A stretch of DNA of 16,785 bases from a virus. Under the pieces are notes generated by a model. It ran no database searches. It was not told where the DNA came from and saw only the letters and a list, made by a program, of their open reading frames with translations. This document shows positions 4,233-16,785 of the stretch, piece after piece. The DNA lies in the UHGV virus genome UHGV-0061980. One strand, given 5' to 3'. The translations under genes were made by a program, and so were the position numbers. Position 1 is the stretch's first letter. The number at the start of each line of letters is the position of its first letter.

Positions 4233-4267
4233 CCCAAATAAAAAGGCCTGCGATTACCTGCAGGCCT
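4233..4267 (-). terminator. Intrinsic terminator between the helicase gene and ninB (tR2-like, expected to be read through under N antitermination)
   Basis: Perfect 8-bp stem AGGCCTGC/GCAGGCCT with an 8-nt loop, followed on the minus-strand transcript by UUUUAUUU. Confidence 0.6.
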
Positions 4268-6964: not shown

Positions 6965-7204
6965 ATTGGTGAGAATCGAAGCAACTTGTCGTGCCAATCG
7001 AGCCATATCGTCGTCAACGACGCCCCATTCAAGAACAGCAAGCAGCATTGAGAACTTTGGAATCCAGTCCCTCTTCCACCTGCTGATCTGCGACTTATCA
7101 ACTCCCACAGCTTCCGCTGTCTTCTCAGTTCCAAGCATTGCGATTTTGTTAAGCAACGCACTCTCGATTCTTAGAGCCTCGTTGCGTTTGTTTGCACGAA
7201 CCAT
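6911..7204 (-). CDS. cII: Transcriptional activator CII (lambda-type), 97 aa
   Basis: MVRANKRNEALRIESALLNKIAMLGTEKTAEAVGVDKSQISRWKRDWIPKFSMLLAVLEWGVVDDD... is nearly identical to lambda CII from memory. Start at the ATG at 7204, not at the upstream ORF extension. Confidence 0.95.
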   Translation of the reverse strand: MVRANKRNEALRIESALLNKIAMLGTEKTAEAVGVDKSQISRWKRDWIPKFSMLLAVLEWGVVDDDMARLARQVASILTNKKRPAATERSDQIQMEF

Positions 7205-7262
7205 ATGTAAGTATTTCCTTAACAAATAAGAAGTTATGCGCATCAACTTATGCGCGTTGTAT

Positions 7263-7305
7263 TCCCGCATTTCGGCGGGAATGAGGACCATGACTGTTAA
7301 AGAGC
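7263..7305 (-). promoter_or_regulatory. nutR: boxA (GCTCTTTAACA) plus boxB hairpin (UCCCGC-CGAAAU-GCGGGA) on the rightward (minus-strand) transcript between cro and cII
   Basis: boxA-like element at 7295-7305 and a 6-bp stem hairpin at 7263-7280. The identical boxA and boxB sequences recur upstream of N (nutL). Confidence 0.6.
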
Positions 7306-7312
7306 AATTTGC

Positions 7313-7498
7313 TTATGCCGCTTTGCGGTAAGCGCTTTCTTGATACTTCAGGGCGCCAGCTGTAACGACTTCCAGTCGATAGGCGTCTTTCTCTGGGATG
7401 ACTTCCTTCCACTGAGAGACTGCTGCGTCGCTAATGCCTAACGCTTTAGCTACAGCACGCTGGGTTCCGAAGTGGTCGATAACATCTTTCTTGTACAT
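7313..7498 (-). CDS. cro: Cro (P22-type), 61 aa
   Basis: MYKKDVIDHFGTQRAVAKALGISDAAVSQWKEVIPEKDAYRLEVVTAGALKYQ... is nearly identical to P22 Cro as recalled. Divergent from the repressor gene across the operator region. Confidence 0.95.
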   Translation of the reverse strand: MYKKDVIDHFGTQRAVAKALGISDAAVSQWKEVIPEKDAYRLEVVTAGALKYQESAYRKAA

Positions 7499-7512
7499 AG
7501 ACTCGCTCCGAA

Positions 7513-7578
7513 ATTAAAGAACACTTAAATTATCCACTAAAGGAATCTTAAGTCAAGTTTATTTAAGATGTCTTAACT
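7513..7578. promoter_or_regulatory. Right operator region with three 18-bp P22-type operator palindromes (7513-7530, 7536-7553, 7561-7578), overlapping PR and PRM
   Basis: Sites ATTAAAGAACACTTAAAT, ACTAAAGGAATCTTAAGT and ATTTAAGATGTCTTAACT are imperfect palindromes built on the ATTTAAG/CTTAAAT half-site. PR on the minus strand: -35 TTGACT (7551-7556), -10 ATAATT (7528-7533). The c2 ATG directly abuts the third operator. Confidence 0.8.
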
Positions 7579-8229
7579 ATGAAAACTCAATTGATGGGAG
7601 AGCGCATTCGCGCTCGGAGAAAAGAACTCAAGATCAGGCAGGCCGCACTTGGAAAGATGGTCGGCGTGTCTAATGTTGCCATATCTCAGTGGGAACGCTC
7701 TGAGACAGAGCCAAATGGAGAGAATCTTCTCGCCCTGGCTAATGCGTTGAAGTGTTCCCCTGACTATCTGATGAAAGGAGAGGAAAGTCTTTCAAACATT
7801 GCCTATCACAGTAGGCATGATCCAAGAGGGTCATACCCTCTGATTAGCTGGGTGAGCGCAGGATGCTGGATGGAAGCTGTAGAACCATATCATAAGCGTG
7901 CAATAGATAACTGGTACGATACAACCGTAGACTGTTCAGAAGATTCGTTTTGGTTGGACGTGAAGGGAGACTCAATGACGGCTCCGGCCGGTCTCAGTAT
8001 CCCTGAAGGAATGATAATACTCGTCGATCCTGAAGTAGAGCCGCGTAACGGGAAACTGGTAGTTGCAAAGCTCGAAGGAGAAAACGAGGCAACTTTCAAG
8101 AAGTTAGTTATTGATGCAGGCAGGAAGTTTCTAAAACCACTTAACCCACAATATCCGATGATCGAGATCAACGGAAACTGCAAAATCATCGGCGTAGTTG
8201 TCGATGCAAAACTAGCAAACCTTCCATAA
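7579..8229 (+). CDS. c2: Prophage repressor, P22 c2-type (LexA-like S24 peptidase C-terminal domain), 216 aa
   Basis: The translation is nearly identical to the P22 C2 repressor as recalled (QLMGERIRARRK.LKIRQAALGKMVGVSNVAISQWERSETEPNGENLLAL...). HTH N-terminal domain; autocleavage elements GDSM and the downstream Lys are present. Confidence 0.95.
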   Translation: MKTQLMGERIRARRKELKIRQAALGKMVGVSNVAISQWERSETEPNGENLLALANALKCSPDYLMKGEESLSNIAYHSRHDPRGSYPLISWVSAGCWMEAVEPYHKRAIDNWYDTTVDCSEDSFWLDVKGDSMTAPAGLSIPEGMIILVDPEVEPRNGKLVVAKLEGENEATFKKLVIDAGRKFLKPLNPQYPMIEINGNCKIIGVVVDAKLANLP

Positions 8230-8544: not shown

Positions 8545-8844
8545 ATGACAGTAGTCATTACATATCTGGCTGACGATAACGCCAGAAATCGCCGCAGAGC
8601 ACGCAGACAGGCTCAACGTGAACAGGCAATGCAAGAGCAGCGACTGGCGCGAAAAATTGCGCTAAAGCTCTCTGGTTGCGTCAGAGCAGATAAAGCAGCA
8701 TCACTCGGAAGCCTTCGCTGTAAGAAAGCAGAAGAAGTCGAGCATAAACAGAACCGTATTTACTACCGCAAGCCACGCAGTGAAATGGGTGTGACTTGTG
8801 TTGGTCGCCAGAAAATAAAATTAGGCAGCAAACCACTTATTTGA
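8545..8844 (+). CDS. N: Antitermination protein N (phage 21 / lambda-family type), 99 aa
   Basis: Arg-rich N-terminal motif (NARNRRRARRQAQREQ) and a C-terminus RIYYRKPRSEMGVTCVGRQKIKLGSKPLI that resembles lambda N (...GITCSGRQKIKGKSIPLI) and phage 21 N as recalled. GGAGG SD 5 nt upstream; downstream of pL/nutL. Confidence 0.85.
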   Translation: MTVVITYLADDNARNRRRARRQAQREQAMQEQRLARKIALKLSGCVRADKAASLGSLRCKKAEEVEHKQNRIYYRKPRSEMGVTCVGRQKIKLGSKPLI

Positions 8845-8855
8845 GAGGAATTAAT

Positions 8856-9479
8856 ATGTCATCAATCCGCTTAACTACGAGAATGAAAGAGGAAATCGCT
8901 CGTAACGCTTTAATTAAGTCTGGGGTTTTCACTGAACTTGAAGAAGTAACAAAGTTAAAGAACCAGCTTGCACTTGACGCCAGAGTTATTGCGTTTGGCG
9001 GTAAAAAGAAAACTGAGGAAGTGGATCAGTTATCATCCAAGTTGGTAGCTATAAGTGAAGAACTTGAAAAGATGGGATGTTCATTTTACTCATACGATGT
9101 TAGTTCTACTTCAATTTATCTGACTGTATCTGGCAGAAGGGTTGGATGGCATTCATATGGGAAAGACGGCAACGGCGAAGATATATTGCTCCCTACTCCG
9201 ACCAAAGATAAATGCATGTTTAGCGCAGAACACGAAATAACAAAAAGGTTTGATGAAATCTGCGCATTGCAACAAAAACTTGAAGCCAAGAAAAAGGATA
9301 TCGAATCAAATGTATGGGCTGCTTTGAACTCAGTCACAACAGTTAAGCGACTTATTGAAGTTTGGCCTGAAAGCAAAGAATTGCTACCAAAAGAAGCAGA
9401 TAAAGCAAGTACAGCACTTCCTGCTTTACGGGTAGAAGATTTGAATAAGATGATTGGACTTCCTTCCGAGGCCGCATAG
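8856..9479 (+). CDS. Hypothetical protein, 207 aa, first gene of a low-GC insert after N; function unknown
   Basis: ATG at 8856 preceded by GAGGAA; the start MSSIRLTTRMKEEI lies 20 codons inside the listed ORF, which otherwise overlaps N. About 38% G+C by manual count on the first 120 nt versus about 50% in N. No transmembrane-like hydrophobic stretch; no family recognised. Confidence 0.6.
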   Translation: MSSIRLTTRMKEEIARNALIKSGVFTELEEVTKLKNQLALDARVIAFGGKKKTEEVDQLSSKLVAISEELEKMGCSFYSYDVSSTSIYLTVSGRRVGWHSYGKDGNGEDILLPTPTKDKCMFSAEHEITKRFDEICALQQKLEAKKKDIESNVWAALNSVTTVKRLIEVWPESKELLPKEADKASTALPALRVEDLNKMIGLPSEAA

Positions 9480-12915: not shown

Positions 12916-13475
12916 AACAAATGTCACTAATTGAGATGGATAGTTTTCTGAAAGGTAAATGCATCCCACGAGATTTAAAGGTTAACGAAACAAACGCTGA
13001 ATATCTGGTGCGTAAATTTGCTGAAGCGGAGGCCAAGATTTCGGCTCTGTCCGAAGACCACCAGAAAGCGATTGAGTCAATTAAGCAGGCTGATGCGGCT
13101 GTTAAGTTGGCACACGAGAAGTTTTCGGCGCTGGCAGCGGAGAATGCCTCAATGAAGCTGTTTATCAGGGGCTGTTGCTACGTGTTTGATGGCCAGCAGG
13201 ATGAAATATCTGATGCGTATATCTGCGCAACAGACGGAGGGATGCCGCAAATTCCAGCCACCGACGCTTTCCTGGCTGAAGTTCGGGCGCAGGGCGTGGA
13301 TGCTGCTATAGAAGCTGCAAAAAATCTGGTGGCCCAAGAATATGAGTATAAGGATTTCAAAGCGGCGCAGAGTGATTGCTGTATGCACCCTGGTTCAGAC
13401 CTGGTAGGGAAGGTTGAAATGACTGAGTGGTTAGTTGACTTTGCTGCCCAGCTTCGCAAAGGAGGCAACCAGTGA
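12912..13475 (+). CDS. Hypothetical protein, about 187 aa, with a coiled-coil N-terminus and a Cys-containing C-terminus
   Basis: ATG at 12912 follows GGAG; an alternative GTG start at 12894 has no SD. Its stop overlaps the GTG start of the Ea22-like gene. Confidence 0.5.
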
Positions 13476-14050
13476 GCGAAATTAATTACCAGGCACTGCG
13501 TGAGGCGGCGGAACGTGCAATTCCAGCAATGGAACGCCTGTTAATGTTGCCAGCTGATGATGATTTGATAAGTGAACAGGAACTTAAAGATTACGGTGTG
13601 GATATTGATGCGCTCAACGCCTTCAAATTTCTGGCCGGACCAGAAACCGTGCTGGCGCTGCTGGATGAACGGGAAAGAAACCAGCAATACATAAAACGCC
13701 GCGATCAGGAGAACGAGGAAATTGCGCTAACGGTAGGGAAGCTGCGTGTTGAGCTGGAAGCCGCAGAGAAGCGCATTGCAGAACTGGAAACACGGGAAAT
13801 AAAACCAGCCAAAGGTGAAGTTCTTGTCGTTGTTTCTGGTTTTACTGGTTGCGGAAAAAGCGCCATTGCCGGGGAAATAGAAATTGCGATGAAGGCTATT
13901 GGTGTACCGGTTCAGAGGACTAATGGCGATGCGGAAAAGCGCATGACAGGAGCTGACTGGCTGACAGCGATTGAGATGTACAAACCAACAGTGCGCATCG
14001 TGGAAGTTAATGTGCCACGCGCCGCTGGCATCAAGGAGGAGTCTGAGTGA
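13472..14050 (+). CDS. Ea22-like (Ead/Ea22 family) protein, 192 aa, with a C-terminal Walker-A-like motif
   Basis: [14 protein letters not shown]... and LALLDERERNQQYIKRRDQENEEIALTVGKLRVELE match lambda Ea22 as recalled. GGAGG SD before the GTG start. The C-terminus contains VLVVVSGFTGCGKS (G-x4-GKS). Confidence 0.7.
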   Translation: MSEINYQALREAAERAIPAMERLLMLPADDDLISEQELKDYGVDIDALNAFKFLAGPETVLALLDERERNQQYIKRRDQENEEIALTVGKLRVELEAAEKRIAELETREIKPAKGEVLVVVSGFTGCGKSAIAGEIEIAMKAIGVPVQRTNGDAEKRMTGADWLTAIEMYKPTVRIVEVNVPRAAGIKEESE

Positions 14051-14541
14051 TGGTCATTTCACCTATAACGCTGAAAGCGGCGCAGGAATTTATCGCACAG
14101 CACCACCGACACAATAAACCACCAGTGGGGCATAAATTCAGCATTGGTCTGAGAAATAATGCCGGAGAATTGATAGGTGTGGCGACAGCTGGTCGACCTG
14201 TTGCACGACATTTCGACGATGGATTAACGCTTGAAGTAAATCGCACATGTACCACAGGAGAACGCAACGCTAACAGCGCGCTTTATGGTGCTATCTGGCG
14301 GGCAGCAAAAGCTATGGGTTATCAACGTTGTATTACGTACACCCAGGCAGATGAATCAGGAGCATCTCTTCGCGCAGTTGGTTTTGTTCGTGTGAAAGAG
14401 CTTCCTCCAAGAAAAAGCTGGGCGGAATCAAGCGTCGCCCTGCGGAGTAAACGCGATCCGGTCGGAAACGGTGGTATTCCTCGTGTGCTCTGGGAAATCA
14501 GGAGAATGAGTACCACTGGCATTGGCATCAAAGGAGGGTGA
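14050..14541 (+). CDS. Conserved-looking hypothetical protein, about 163 aa (HHRH motif; possibly an acetyltransferase-like fold, unverified)
   Basis: ATG at 14050 overlaps the Ea22-like stop (TGATG); AGGAGG upstream. Fold assignment is a guess from motif spacing only. Confidence 0.5.
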   Translation: MVISPITLKAAQEFIAQHHRHNKPPVGHKFSIGLRNNAGELIGVATAGRPVARHFDDGLTLEVNRTCTTGERNANSALYGAIWRAAKAMGYQRCITYTQADESGASLRAVGFVRVKELPPRKSWAESSVALRSKRDPVGNGGIPRVLWEIRRMSTTGIGIKGG

Positions 14542-14542
14542 T

Positions 14543-14830
14543 ATGGCAACTTTGCAGGAATTAATCGACCTGACGCCAGAACAGGAAAAAGCGTGGAATC
14601 GCCTTGTGAAGGCTGTAAAGGATTTCAGGGCAGCCGGAGGAAAGTTTTATAGCGTCCTGGACACGCTGAGCGCATACAACGGCGAGCACGTTGCCAGCAT
14701 TGATAACGATAAGGGCTACCACACTGCAAGCGTTTATATGCCTAGCATTGATGCGCCAGGGCTAACCAGTTGGGCTGATGATTGGCACGGCATCACGCTG
14801 AAAGATGGCGTTGAAGTGGATGAGGACTAA
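14543..14830 (+). CDS. Hypothetical protein, 95 aa, with an acidic C-terminus
   Basis: GGAGG sits 5 nt upstream of the ATG at 14543; the listed ORF begins at an upstream TTG. Confidence 0.5.
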   Translation: MATLQELIDLTPEQEKAWNRLVKAVKDFRAAGGKFYSVLDTLSAYNGEHVASIDNDKGYHTASVYMPSIDAPGLTSWADDWHGITLKDGVEVDED

Positions 14831-14833
14831 CAC

Positions 14834-15088
14834 ATGACAACTTTAACCGACAAAGAAATGATTAAAGAAATCAAAGAACGCATAGGCAGCCTGGACGTGC
14901 GAGACAATATTGAGCGCCGGGCTTATGAAATTGCTCTGGCATCGCTGGAAGAGAATCCGGTGGCATGGCTGCATTCAGACAATGGCTTAGGTATTCCGGC
15001 AATAACGAGGAGTAAAAACATTGCTGACAGTTGGTTATCAAAGGGTTGGTATGTTCAGCCGCTATATATGCCAAGCCAGTGCCAGTAG
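14834..15088 (+). CDS. Hypothetical protein, 84 aa; its N-terminal module is paralogous to that of the 246-aa protein at 15847
   Basis: GAGGACTAACAC-ATG start context is nearly identical to that of gene 15847 (GAGGATTAACAC-ATG). N-termini MTTLTDKEMIKEIKERIGSLDV...EIALASLEE versus MTTITKERIELFIKNPLENGLT...RIALASLERE. Confidence 0.45.
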   Translation: MTTLTDKEMIKEIKERIGSLDVRDNIERRAYEIALASLEENPVAWLHSDNGLGIPAITRSKNIADSWLSKGWYVQPLYMPSQCQ

Positions 15089-15105
15089 TACCTGAAGAAA
15101 AACCA

Positions 15106-15639
15106 ATGCCTAACCCTCTTAGCATGTACGCGGTCGATGCTGTTGCCGCTATTGCAGAGGTGAGAGGCTGGAACGCCTGCCGCGCGGCTATGCTTCATGC
15201 CGGAAACTTTCGGGAAAACGCGAATTCGTCAACCAATAATTTTCGGGAAATTTCGGAAACGTCAACCAACTCTCCGGTAATTCCTGGTGAGGTGTTGTCC
15301 GCAATCCTGAAATTTGCCAGAGTTCGTGCTGATTTCGATGATTTTGACGGCGACAGGCGAGGTATCGGTGATTGTCTGGATGAGGCTGAGCAAGAGCTTA
15401 TCGTTACCATTAACAAATATGCCAGTCAGTTGGCAGCAGAACCGATAGCGACTAATGACGTTCGAGAGCAGCAGACAGCCGTTCCGCCAGTTCCTGTAAT
15501 ACAGGCTGATGTCGCGCAAGCAATTGAAAATCTCAGGCAGAAGTTAGTGGAATGCAATCGCTATAACTACTGCGCAGATGCAGTTAAGGGCGTAGAGGAT
15601 GCCTGCCACGCTGCCATGCTTCAGGGAAAAAGAGAGTGA
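15106..15639 (+). CDS. Hypothetical protein, 177 aa if started at the ATG at 15106; may instead be the frameshifted 3' part of the 14834 gene
   Basis: The frame is open from 15031 but the first ATG is at 15106. Contains an imperfect ~33-bp tandem repeat (15207-15269) encoding FRENANSSTNN/FREISETSTNS. Confidence 0.4.
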   Translation: MPNPLSMYAVDAVAAIAEVRGWNACRAAMLHAGNFRENANSSTNNFREISETSTNSPVIPGEVLSAILKFARVRADFDDFDGDRRGIGDCLDEAEQELIVTINKYASQLAAEPIATNDVREQQTAVPPVPVIQADVAQAIENLRQKLVECNRYNYCADAVKGVEDACHAAMLQGKRE

Positions 15640-15640
15640 T

Positions 15641-15850
15641 ATGGCTATTGCCGCAAGTTACACCATGCATCTCTATTGTGATTGTCGCCAGTGTACGGAA
15701 GGTGTATATCCAGTGCCAGACTTCGGTGAGTATATCGGTACGTCATGGTCTGGTTGTGCAAAAGAGGCCCGTAAAGACGGGTGGCGAATAAGCAAAGACA
15801 AAACACGTACTTTTGCGCCCGGGCATAAAGTTTTGAGGATTAACACATGA
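15641..15850 (+). CDS. Small Cys-rich hypothetical protein, 69 aa
   Basis: The ATG at 15641 lies 1 nt after the upstream stop; its stop overlaps the next start (ATGA). Cys pattern C-x-C-x2-C...C suggests possible metal binding. Confidence 0.4.
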   Translation: MAIAASYTMHLYCDCRQCTEGVYPVPDFGEYIGTSWSGCAKEARKDGWRISKDKTRTFAPGHKVLRINT

Positions 15851-16579
15851 CCACTATTACCAAAGAACGTATTGAATTGTTCATTAAAAATCCGCTTGAA
15901 AACGGGCTTACTCGTGGCGAACAAATGGAACTAGCACGAATTGCACTGGCATCACTGGAACGCGAACAGATTCGCCACGAGCATGCCAAATGGTCTGACT
16001 CCACATTTGGCTGCGTTGGCCCCATTGGTCCACTGAAACACCTCTCAAAAGAGGCACTGGAAGCCGCAGCCGAACCAGACGATCTTAGCGAGTGGGCTGA
16101 TATGCAGTTTCTGTTGTGGGATGCACAGCGCCGTGCTGGCATCAGCGATGCTGAAATTACCGTTGCTATGGAAGATAAATTGAAGATCAACATGGAGCGC
16201 CAGTGGCCTGAGCCAAAAGATGGTGAGCCTCGCTTGCACATTAAAGAACCCGGCAACTCTCCGGTAATTCCGGATGGTTTATCCACGGTATGCGCTGAGG
16301 CTTATCAGGTTGTAGGAGTTATGGCAGATGCGCTTGGTGTATTCGGTGATGCAGCAGTACAGAAAGTTCTGGATAACCTGTCACAGCAAAAACTTGTTCA
16401 CAGAGATGTGCTGCCGTTCTCGCTTCCGGTAACTCCGGATGGTTGGGTTATGGTTCCTAAACAGGTAACGCCGGAAATCAGCAACGCGATAAACGTTGTG
16501 GGTCAACGCTGTACATGCGGAAATTGCTCTCAGCGGTTGTGGGATTTATTACTCGACGCCACACAGCAAGGAGTTAACC

Positions 16580-16587
<8 letters not shown>
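15847..16587 (+). CDS. MazG-like nucleotide pyrophosphohydrolase-domain protein (DUF550-like dATP/dGTP diphosphohydrolase type), 246 aa
   Basis: The central region HLSKEALEAAAEPDDLSEWADMQFLLWDAQRRAGISDAEITVAMEDKLKINMER fits the MazG-type E-x2-E ... E-x2-D signature. GAGGA SD upstream. Confidence 0.55.

Positions 16588-16785
<198 letters not shown>

Follow-up and report, generated by a model that had tools for sequence, protein, structure and literature searches.

Short conserved sequences at the module borders of lambdoid phages were reportedly proposed as recombination sites in the HK620 and HK97 genome papers. The exo-xis proteins of such phages are described as mosaic (PMC8614690), and DUF551 is described among these mosaic proteins as a portable domain (PMC10834534). 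On the enzymatic side, MazZ of cyanophage S-2L, a (d)GTP-specific MazG-like pyrophosphohydrolase, coordinates three Mn2+ ions via E34/E35/E38 and E50/D53, depends on R83, and touches the 2-amino group of guanine with D60 (PMC8342488); the DUF5664-DUF550 protein of Acinetobacter phage SH-Ab 15497 appears, in the passages of PMC12884076 that cite Zhou et al. 2021, as an assayed member of PF04447. Here we describe a modular DUF550 gene at positions 15847-16587 of the UHGV virus genome UHGV-0061980, a stretch of 16,785 nucleotides referred to below as the window. It is an ordinary, common and already annotated accessory gene of E. coli lambda-like prophages, and the explanation that we consider probable is that it is an intact gene of the pL operon with a MazG-HisE/MazZ-like DUF550 core, whose modules are exchanged at junctions conserved at the DNA level.

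A model working from the sequence alone had called the encoded protein MazG-like or DUF550 (the original prediction), and this assignment holds. PF04447, formerly DUF550 and now named "dATP/dGTP pyrophosphohydrolase," matches residues 42 to 137 with an E value of 8.2e-42 (141.8 bits against a cut-off of 23, profile positions 1 to 96 of 97) in Pfam scans that covered the larger open reading frames (ORFs) of the window. Of the two profiles proposed for the search only this one was found, the canonical MazG family PF03819 having no match at E <= 0.1 in the Pfam scan; by its sequence the protein is best classed as MazG-like and not as MazG proper. A phmmer search of the full protein against PDB sequences gave no match at E <= 1. 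An hmmsearch with a small domain profile, which took in the SH-Ab 15497 homologue, retrieved a single PDB protein, S-2L MazZ (7ODY, E = 3.3e-11, profile positions 3 to 94 of 97).

The predicted metal ligands E69, E72, E82 and D85, together with R118, match E35, E38, E50, D53 and R83 of MazZ in the alignments, with the qualification that HMMER sets a two-residue gap beside the ExxE motif and that the equivalence of E72 and E38 follows from the motif register. D92 aligns with MazZ D60, and K111, N115 and W120 match MazZ K76, N80 and W85; each of these nine residues is at least 90% conserved among 145 relatives. The motifs quoted in the original prediction turn out to be the catalytic elements of MazZ, with E69/E72 in KEALE, E82/D85 in SEWAD and K111/N115/R118 in KLKINMER.

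The AlphaFold2 (AF2) model is confident for residues 11 to 120 (block predicted local distance difference test score [pLDDT] of 76 to 87) and poor past residue 130. Its helices at residues 23-54, 60-75, 80-96 and 101-117 (pLDDT of ~80 to 87) give the DUF550 domain the predicted four-helix MazG-HisE fold. The alignment behind the model had little depth in the core and told nothing about the C-terminal modules, which are given no structural reading. In Foldseek searches of the PDB, ranks 1 to 4 were chains of 7ODY (probability 1.00, template modeling score of 0.61 to 0.66 per target, root mean square deviation of 3.5 A, 27 to 29% identity), followed by the MazG-like 2GTA and 5IE9 (B. subtilis YpjD, a Bacillus MazG). 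Across 135 representatives (from 150 representative matches) whose clusters share <50% identity overall, the domain keeps at least 73% identity; this level persists while the surroundings change, and the catalytic core is therefore under strong purifying selection. Taken together, profile matches and model place the DUF550 domain in the MazG-HisE all-alpha nucleoside-triphosphate pyrophosphohydrolase superfamily as a homologue of MazZ. By analogy, it would be a Mg/Mn-dependent hydrolase that converts (d)NTP to (d)NMP and PPi, probably acting on purine nucleotides; distant relatives are the guide to the likely substrate and biological role of the gene.

The second line of evidence is the linker that follows the domain. 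Just as had been predicted, an exact-match search places the 18-mer CAACTCTCCGGTAATTCC at 15267-15284 and 16254-16271, and tolerating 2 mismatches adds no further site in the window; both ORFs translate it in one and the same frame, as N-S-P-V-I-P. The repeat extends to 23 nt at 91% identity (direct repeat D4). A chance repeat was rejected, since none of 200 dinucleotide-preserving shuffles held the 18-mer twice. Assembly collapse was rejected as well, the repeat being present in many finished genomes; moreover, a repeat of 18 nt hardly seems long enough to mislead a typical assembly.

The exact 17-mer AACTCTCCGGTAATTCC is found in at least 120 IMG/VR contigs, where it joins at least 55 left and at least 60 right flank types in at least 86 combinations, flank types being clusters of the adjacent 60 nt at 80% identity. 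A scan with synonymous positions left free (GGNAAYWSNCCNGTNAYHCCNGAYGGNTGG) likewise gave at least 120 contigs, with at least 74 left and at least 76 right flank classes, and three DNA versions made up ~80% of the copies among the matches listed. With one representative per left-flank class (74 listed), the codons for Asn (AAC), Ser (TCT) and the first Pro (CCG) never vary among the 74, and GTA encodes Val in 62. Codon entropy is ~0.2 bit in the linker (I/T codon excluded), compared to ~0.4 to 1.7 bit in invariant peptides of the DUF550 core at the same loci. The commonest junction reads GGC AAC TCT CCG GTA AYT CCG GAT GGT TGG, encoding GNSPV(I/T)PDGW, with the 18-mer as its core. The linker has the properties of a lambdoid mosaic joint, namely unrelated flanks, coinciding breakpoints and recombinants, the last from a single contig. 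The idea that the 18-mer marks module shuffling is thus well supported by these flank types (at least 55 by at least 60), by homology blocks that end there and by a natural deletion.

This deletion is carried by contig L227 (Logan assembly of SRR21847797), which comes from the same prophage type and aligns to 14834-15284 and 16254-16730 of the window. The two alignments overlap by exactly the 18-mer (L227 positions 4237-4254), and window positions 15285-16271 are absent, a precise 987-bp deletion. The resulting protein, P0144 (189 amino acids), fuses the upstream ORF up to NSPVIP to the DUF550-gene residues from 145 on. L227 is direct evidence of recombination between the 18-mer copies.

Homology breaks off at the other joints of the gene as well. 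TCCGGTAACTCCGGATGGTT at 16425-16444 is 95% identical to 16260-16279 (direct repeat D1) and encodes PVTPDGW. PHROG profiles match separate segments of the protein (residues 1-48, ~35-140, 145-195 and 190-210), and the ends of nucleotide similarity blocks fall at 15832-15847 (start block), 15939-15967 (IALASLE, with ends at 15959/60), 16279, 16424-16446 and 16568-16581 (QGVNRG and the ASCH start) in the DUF550 gene and at 15074-15095 (KPVPVVPEE), 15267, 15284 and 15499 (a degenerate PVPVIQ copy) in the upstream gene. These ends were taken from two independent collections, GenBank phages and 5,426 E. coli genomes, in samples of 60 rows each. P22-like phages and numerous E. coli genomes have module 1 without the rest (15833-15960); in the AF2 model a single helix, residues 23 to 54, spans the IALASLE junction, the N-terminal module being continuous with the first domain helix. 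Relatives such as P0002 and P0003 have the same body with a different N terminus up to IALASLE, which in P0003 is of the type of the gene at 14834. Module 3 sits behind unrelated N-terminal parts in P0140, P0126 and P0144, the tail modules do so in P0126 and P0140, and one protein of 348 amino acids (P0006) combines modules of the upstream-gene type with DUF550. Most of the closest database proteins are 98 to 99% identical up to residue ~202 (PVTPDGW) and then have DUF551 instead of the 46-amino-acid tail; no Pfam family matched this tail (module 4). At E <= 0.001, 3,847 of 1.84 billion cluster representatives match, and among the best 150 of them the DUF550 domain starts anywhere from residue 1 to residue 311. 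The coding sequence consists of DNA modules strung together, each exchangeable on its own: an N-terminal helix, a catalytic domain and two small C-terminal modules. All features are listed in the table.

Table. Features of the DUF550 locus and its surroundings in the window
Feature	Coordinates	Strand	Evidence or remarks
DUF550 gene, complete coding sequence, 246 amino acids, modular	15847..16587	+	ORF list; early-left (exo-xis type) operon, lambdoid prophage
Translation-start block (GAGGA 15835-15839, ATG 15847, codons MTTIT)	15834..15861	+	Copy at 14821-14848 (direct repeat D3)
Module 1, N-terminal helical module, residues 1-38, ends in IALASLE junction	15847..15960	+	phrog_3323, phrog_10451 and phrog_660 match it alone
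Module 2, DUF550/dATP-dGTP pyrophosphohydrolase domain, residues 42-137	15970..16257	+	PF04447, MazZ profile match, Foldseek
Junction 1, linker (G)NSPVIPDG, holds 18-mer 16254-16271	16254..16279	+	Blocks end at 16279 (H66; H114-H119)
Module 3, residues 145-193, small helical module, low AF2 confidence	16280..16424	+	Separate phrog_28884 match
Junction 2, linker PVTPDGW, second copy of linker DNA	16425..16446	+	Blocks end at 16446 or start at 16424/16425 (H104; H110-H112, H127-H129)
Module 4, C-terminal 46 amino acids (VMVPKQVTPE...CTCGNC...), ends in QGVNRG and stop	16447..16587	+	Blocks start at 16568-16581
Paralogous modular EaA-like gene, frameshifted	14834..15639	+	ORFs 14834-15088 and 15031/15106-15639
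Upstream 18-mer copy (NSPVIP), inside the frameshifted paralogue	15267..15284	+	Block H75 starts at 15267, H98 ends at 15284; PGAP pseudogene model ends at 15285
Small intervening gene, 69 amino acids, Cys-rich, phrog_926	15641..15850	+	Stop overlaps the ATG of the DUF550 gene (ATGA)
ASCH-domain gene, truncated, ends at 16753	16580..16753	+	Prophage homology stops at ~16730

The gene is a 741-nt open frame with an ATG start and a GAGGA motif 7 nt 5' of it, and its 3' end shares 8 nt with the next gene, which starts at a GTG. RefSeq phage ev017 has the same 741-nt ORF as one coding sequence, a "DUF550 domain-containing protein" (YP_009909599.1). In the identical DNA of E. coli ATCC 25922 and CFT073, the Prokaryotic Genome Annotation Pipeline (PGAP) splits it into a 42-codon "partial" pseudogene and a 187-amino-acid protein (WP_229023772.1) with an ATT start at 16024; these pieces, at 7014-7139 and 7191-7754 of sequence L001, correspond to window positions 15847-15972 and 16024-16587. 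The split is probably artificial, a by-product of the mosaic build of the gene in an annotation guided by protein families.

The partner in the deletion, the upstream gene, had been taken for two separate genes, one at 14834 and one bearing the 18-mer; both are halves of one frameshifted gene at 14834-15639. One nucleotide has been deleted in a TA run near 15064-15070, where the window reads CTATATATGCC and the intact gp31 of phage 2H10 reads CTATATATAGCC. PGAP marks 14834-15639 as "frameshifted" in genomes with identical DNA, and P0006 aligns to the region in two different frames. None of the viral loci examined has the upstream gene in intact form; phage 2H10 does. The same frameshift is present in ATCC 25922, CFT073 and phage ev017, and the lesion is therefore old and widespread. 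The downstream part from the ATG at 15106, 177 amino acids, forms its own PHROG family (phrog_14306) and may still be expressed. Once the frame is restored, the paralogue follows the plan of the DUF550 gene, with an MTT...IALASLE N-terminal module, a core, a PVVPEE linker, a CRAAML segment, an NSPVIP linker and C-terminal modules.

The ribosome-binding context common to the two genes, as predicted, is real: the start block 15834-15861 is 86% identical to 14821-14848 over 28 nt in the direct-repeat search. The claim of a duplicated N-terminal module stands in part. Both N termini match the same PHROG profiles over residues 1 to 50 (for example phrog_3323, at 1e-13 and 5e-11), and chimeric relatives such as P0003 speak for paralogy, but "duplicated" overstates a weak pairwise similarity, which in BLASTP covers only the IALASLE area (8 of 16 residues identical, E = 0.003), with MTTxT also common to both.

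Some smaller features of the linkers and of the DUF551 relatives were noted. The linker DNA at 16260-16274 (and at 16425-16439) reads TCCGG-TAATT-CCGGA, a 5-bp inverted repeat with a TCCGGA site; the second arm reads CCTGG instead in the upstream linker copy, and the repeat is too short for interpretation. Immediately 5' of the upstream 18-mer copy, 15205-15269 is an imperfect 33-nt tandem duplication (NFRENANSSTN/NFREISETSTN, 78% identical). In the relatives P0010 to P0120, the DUF551 that follows PVTPDGW, a domain absent from the window, has DNA-invariant borders, WISCSERMP (whose rare codons ATA and CGA recur in every or almost every one of 80 copies) and THWMPLPEPP, around a hypervariable core of 50 to 80 amino acids that exists in dozens of versions on an otherwise 98 to 99% identical protein. 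This variation looks like cassette exchange between fixed flanks.

How would such a gene work and diversify? The DUF550 domain would oligomerize, with E69/E72 and E82/D85 binding two or three divalent cations and R118 assisting, and would cleave a (deoxy)nucleoside triphosphate to the monophosphate and pyrophosphate, the substrate most likely being a purine nucleotide (dGTP/dATP). It would act early after infection or induction, adjusting or cleaning the nucleotide pool. Recombination at the junctions, probably between short homologies and of the phage RecT/Red type, yields the many architectures of the relatives, and between the two copies at the locus it yields the 987-bp deletion. The window encodes a RecT-family annealing protein, and exchange across homologies as short as these is established for lambda Red.

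Alternatively, the domain would be active on a physiological substrate other than dATP/dGTP, such as oxidized dNTPs, chain-terminating defense nucleotides or (p)ppGpp, in a sanitizing or counter-defense role. MazG-superfamily enzymes vary widely in substrate, the two assayed relatives share little identity with the domain, the MazZ residues that contact the base have counterparts here only in part, and the accessory early region and the hypervariable C-terminal domains of relatives suggest an arms race. However, no sequence feature points to such a substrate, nothing in the analysis speaks for the alarmone role raised in the original prediction, no defense or anti-defense family was matched (PADLOC was not searched), and the alignment of D92 with the guanine-contacting D60 of MazZ favors a guanine nucleotide; we regard this alternative as unlikely. 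It is very unlikely that a defective prophage has left here only a decaying or chimeric ORF, with a shorter internal-start product or none. The neighboring paralogue is indeed frameshifted, the ASCH gene is truncated and the integration arm replaced in the window, and PGAP calls the first 42 codons a partial pseudogene and starts the rest at an ATT. Yet the 741-nt frame is open behind a good Shine-Dalgarno sequence and an ATG, at least 88 complete genomes have the identical frame, the ev017 annotation is whole, the catalytic residues are intact in a strongly conserved domain, and the AF2 helix of the N-terminal module runs on into the first domain helix. Selection on a proline-rich interdomain peptide combined with E. 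coli codon bias could in principle explain the 18-mer identity with no role for recombination, the motif encoding a plausible flexible linker and CCG, AAC, GAT and GGT being preferred or common E. coli codons. This idea is largely refuted and hardly credible any longer, since Ser is always TCT and Val mostly GTA, neither of them preferred, among the 74 flank classes listed, the synonymous entropy of the linker lies below that of invariant catalytic peptides of the same loci, independent collections show homology blocks stopping precisely at the motif, and an exact inter-repeat deletion exists.

The explanation we favor, an intact modular gene with a MazZ-like core, has several points to its disadvantage. 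MazZ and the DUF550 domain here share only 27 to 29% identity, and the Foldseek E values are weak, from 0.1 to 3.5. The SH-Ab 15497 protein is only 34% identical over 71 amino acids; DUF5664 is itself a dNTP pyrophosphohydrolase according to PMC12884076, and because of this the DUF550 share of the SH-Ab 15497 activity was not isolated. Literature text searches found no assay or functional study of the lambdoid DUF550 clade. AF2 models the last 110 residues poorly, with a pLDDT of <50 in the C-terminal modules, and the PGAP split in some genomes could mean an internal start, set against the unsplit ev017 annotation. As for the junctions, the deletion variant comes from one assembled contig, the part played by RecT/Red-type recombination is our inference, and the linker loci, in part selected through the exact motif, are related by descent, the counts being descriptive, neither independent events nor probabilities.

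The surroundings of the gene are those of a lambdoid prophage. Window positions 14900-16640 are 100% identical in DNA to a prophage of E. coli ATCC 25922 adjoining icd, where ASCH, DUF4222, xis and int follow the block next to icd; the block is also in CFT073. At least 80% of the region is carried by 88 of 5,426 complete E. coli genomes, and 2,402 of the 5,426 match part of the 1.1 kb at 15641-16740, which contains the DUF550 gene. Pfam matches on the minus strand include holin, Q antiterminator, RusA, NinB/NinX, Dam, a DnaB-like helicase and an O-like replication protein. An S24/helix-turn-helix repressor lies at 7579-8229. The plus strand holds a pL-type operon of N-like, Nmad5, DUF2528, RecT, Gp157 and Ead/Ea22-like genes, then the paralogue and DUF550 genes and the ASCH gene. 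The DUF550 ORF itself has no Ead_Ea22 (PF13935) match in the Pfam scan, that match belonging to the neighbor at 13472-14050, and no NCBIfam match was found for the DUF550 gene or its neighbors. The ASCH gene ends early because the lambdoid-prophage homology stops inside it. The last ~55 bases of the window (16728-16785) match P2-like tail-sheath genes on the opposite strand (Yersinia phage Tongde, Escherichia phage 520873), and the DUF4222-xis-int arm of ATCC 25922 is absent from the window; the end at ~16730 may mark a junction of two prophages, a deletion or a chimeric assembly.

Three other genes of the window deserve mention. Directly after the N-like gene, in the same early operon, 8796-9479 encodes an Nmad5 protein (nucleotide modification associated domain 5, PF18757, E = 1.6e-71), a second nucleotide-related accessory gene. 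The Ead/Ea22-like protein of 13472-14050 has an N-terminal coiled-coil part (PF13935, residues 2-104) and a C-terminal part with a Walker-A-like motif, GFTGCGKS, and a weak APS-kinase match, which suggests that the putative P-loop domain is another swapped C-terminal module. The 164-amino-acid ORF at 14047-14541 has a sub-threshold Mom-family match (PF25680, 23.2 bits against a cut-off of 27.1) and is a candidate acyltransferase-like gene for the modification of DNA or nucleotides.

The lambdoid DUF550 clade is very abundant and its catalytic core strongly conserved, while its family name comes from distant enzymes of Z-genome phages, so that the annotation of thousands of genes is at stake. 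The 18-mer is a clean, quantifiable case of in-frame domain shuffling at a DNA-conserved linker, with a deletion product caught in the act; such shuffling helps to understand the diversification of phage accessory proteins and accounts for fragmented automated annotation. We also entertain, tentatively and with considerable doubt, a broader idea: that the ~30-nt linker and its sister joints are no mere passive scars but form a maintained DNA-level "splice site" system for frequent in-frame recombination of enzymatic and binding domains in enterobacterial temperate phages. If so, the early accessory proteins would amount to a combinatorial library assembled from DUF550, the hypervariable DUF551 cassettes and many other domains, perhaps serving as effectors in an arms race with host defenses, and the DUF550 pyrophosphohydrolase would be one interchangeable warhead among them.

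Compared to described enzymes, S-2L MazZ is homologous across the whole domain and the best structural match, its metal ligands, R83 and D60 all having counterparts here. MazZ is a stand-alone protein of ~100 amino acids that feeds PurZ, whereas the protein described here has extra modules and no Z-DNA pathway nearby. The larger ORFs of the window contain no adenylosuccinate-synthetase (PurZ) or HD-phosphohydrolase (DatZ) family by Pfam, and neither PurZ nor DatZ is annotated in the early-left/integration stretch of the ATCC 25922 prophage. A role in the synthesis of Z-DNA (2-aminoadenine) was rejected, and the Z-DNA role of the assayed relatives does not apply here because PurZ and DatZ are missing. 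The SH-Ab 15497 protein has the same Pfam domain, and E82, D85, D92, K111, N115, R118 and W120 are conserved in the alignment, but it scores 33 bits against PF04447, compared to 142 bits here. It carries an N-terminal DUF5664 and adjoins PurZ and DatZ in a Z-genome phage, whereas the DUF550 gene here has neither neighbor and itself bears lambdoid shuffling modules.

The closest counterparts of the whole gene are P22 EaA and the "Phage EaA" or DUF550 proteins of P22-like and lambdoid prophages, which have the same ea/exo-xis position, N-terminal module, domain and linkers. Most of these close relatives end in DUF551 after PVTPDGW, whereas the allele here ends in a Cys-containing module of 46 amino acids. 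A literature text search found no phage paper naming the linker peptide. Mosaic Ea22 proteins are likewise exo-xis proteins assembled from blocks that can be exchanged; in the gene described here, the joints fall at domain borders within the coding sequence, and their DNA specifies a particular linker peptide. The family assignment, the mosaicism of the exo-xis region and the portability of DUF551 are already known, and the linker analysis is a modest addition to phage mosaicism.

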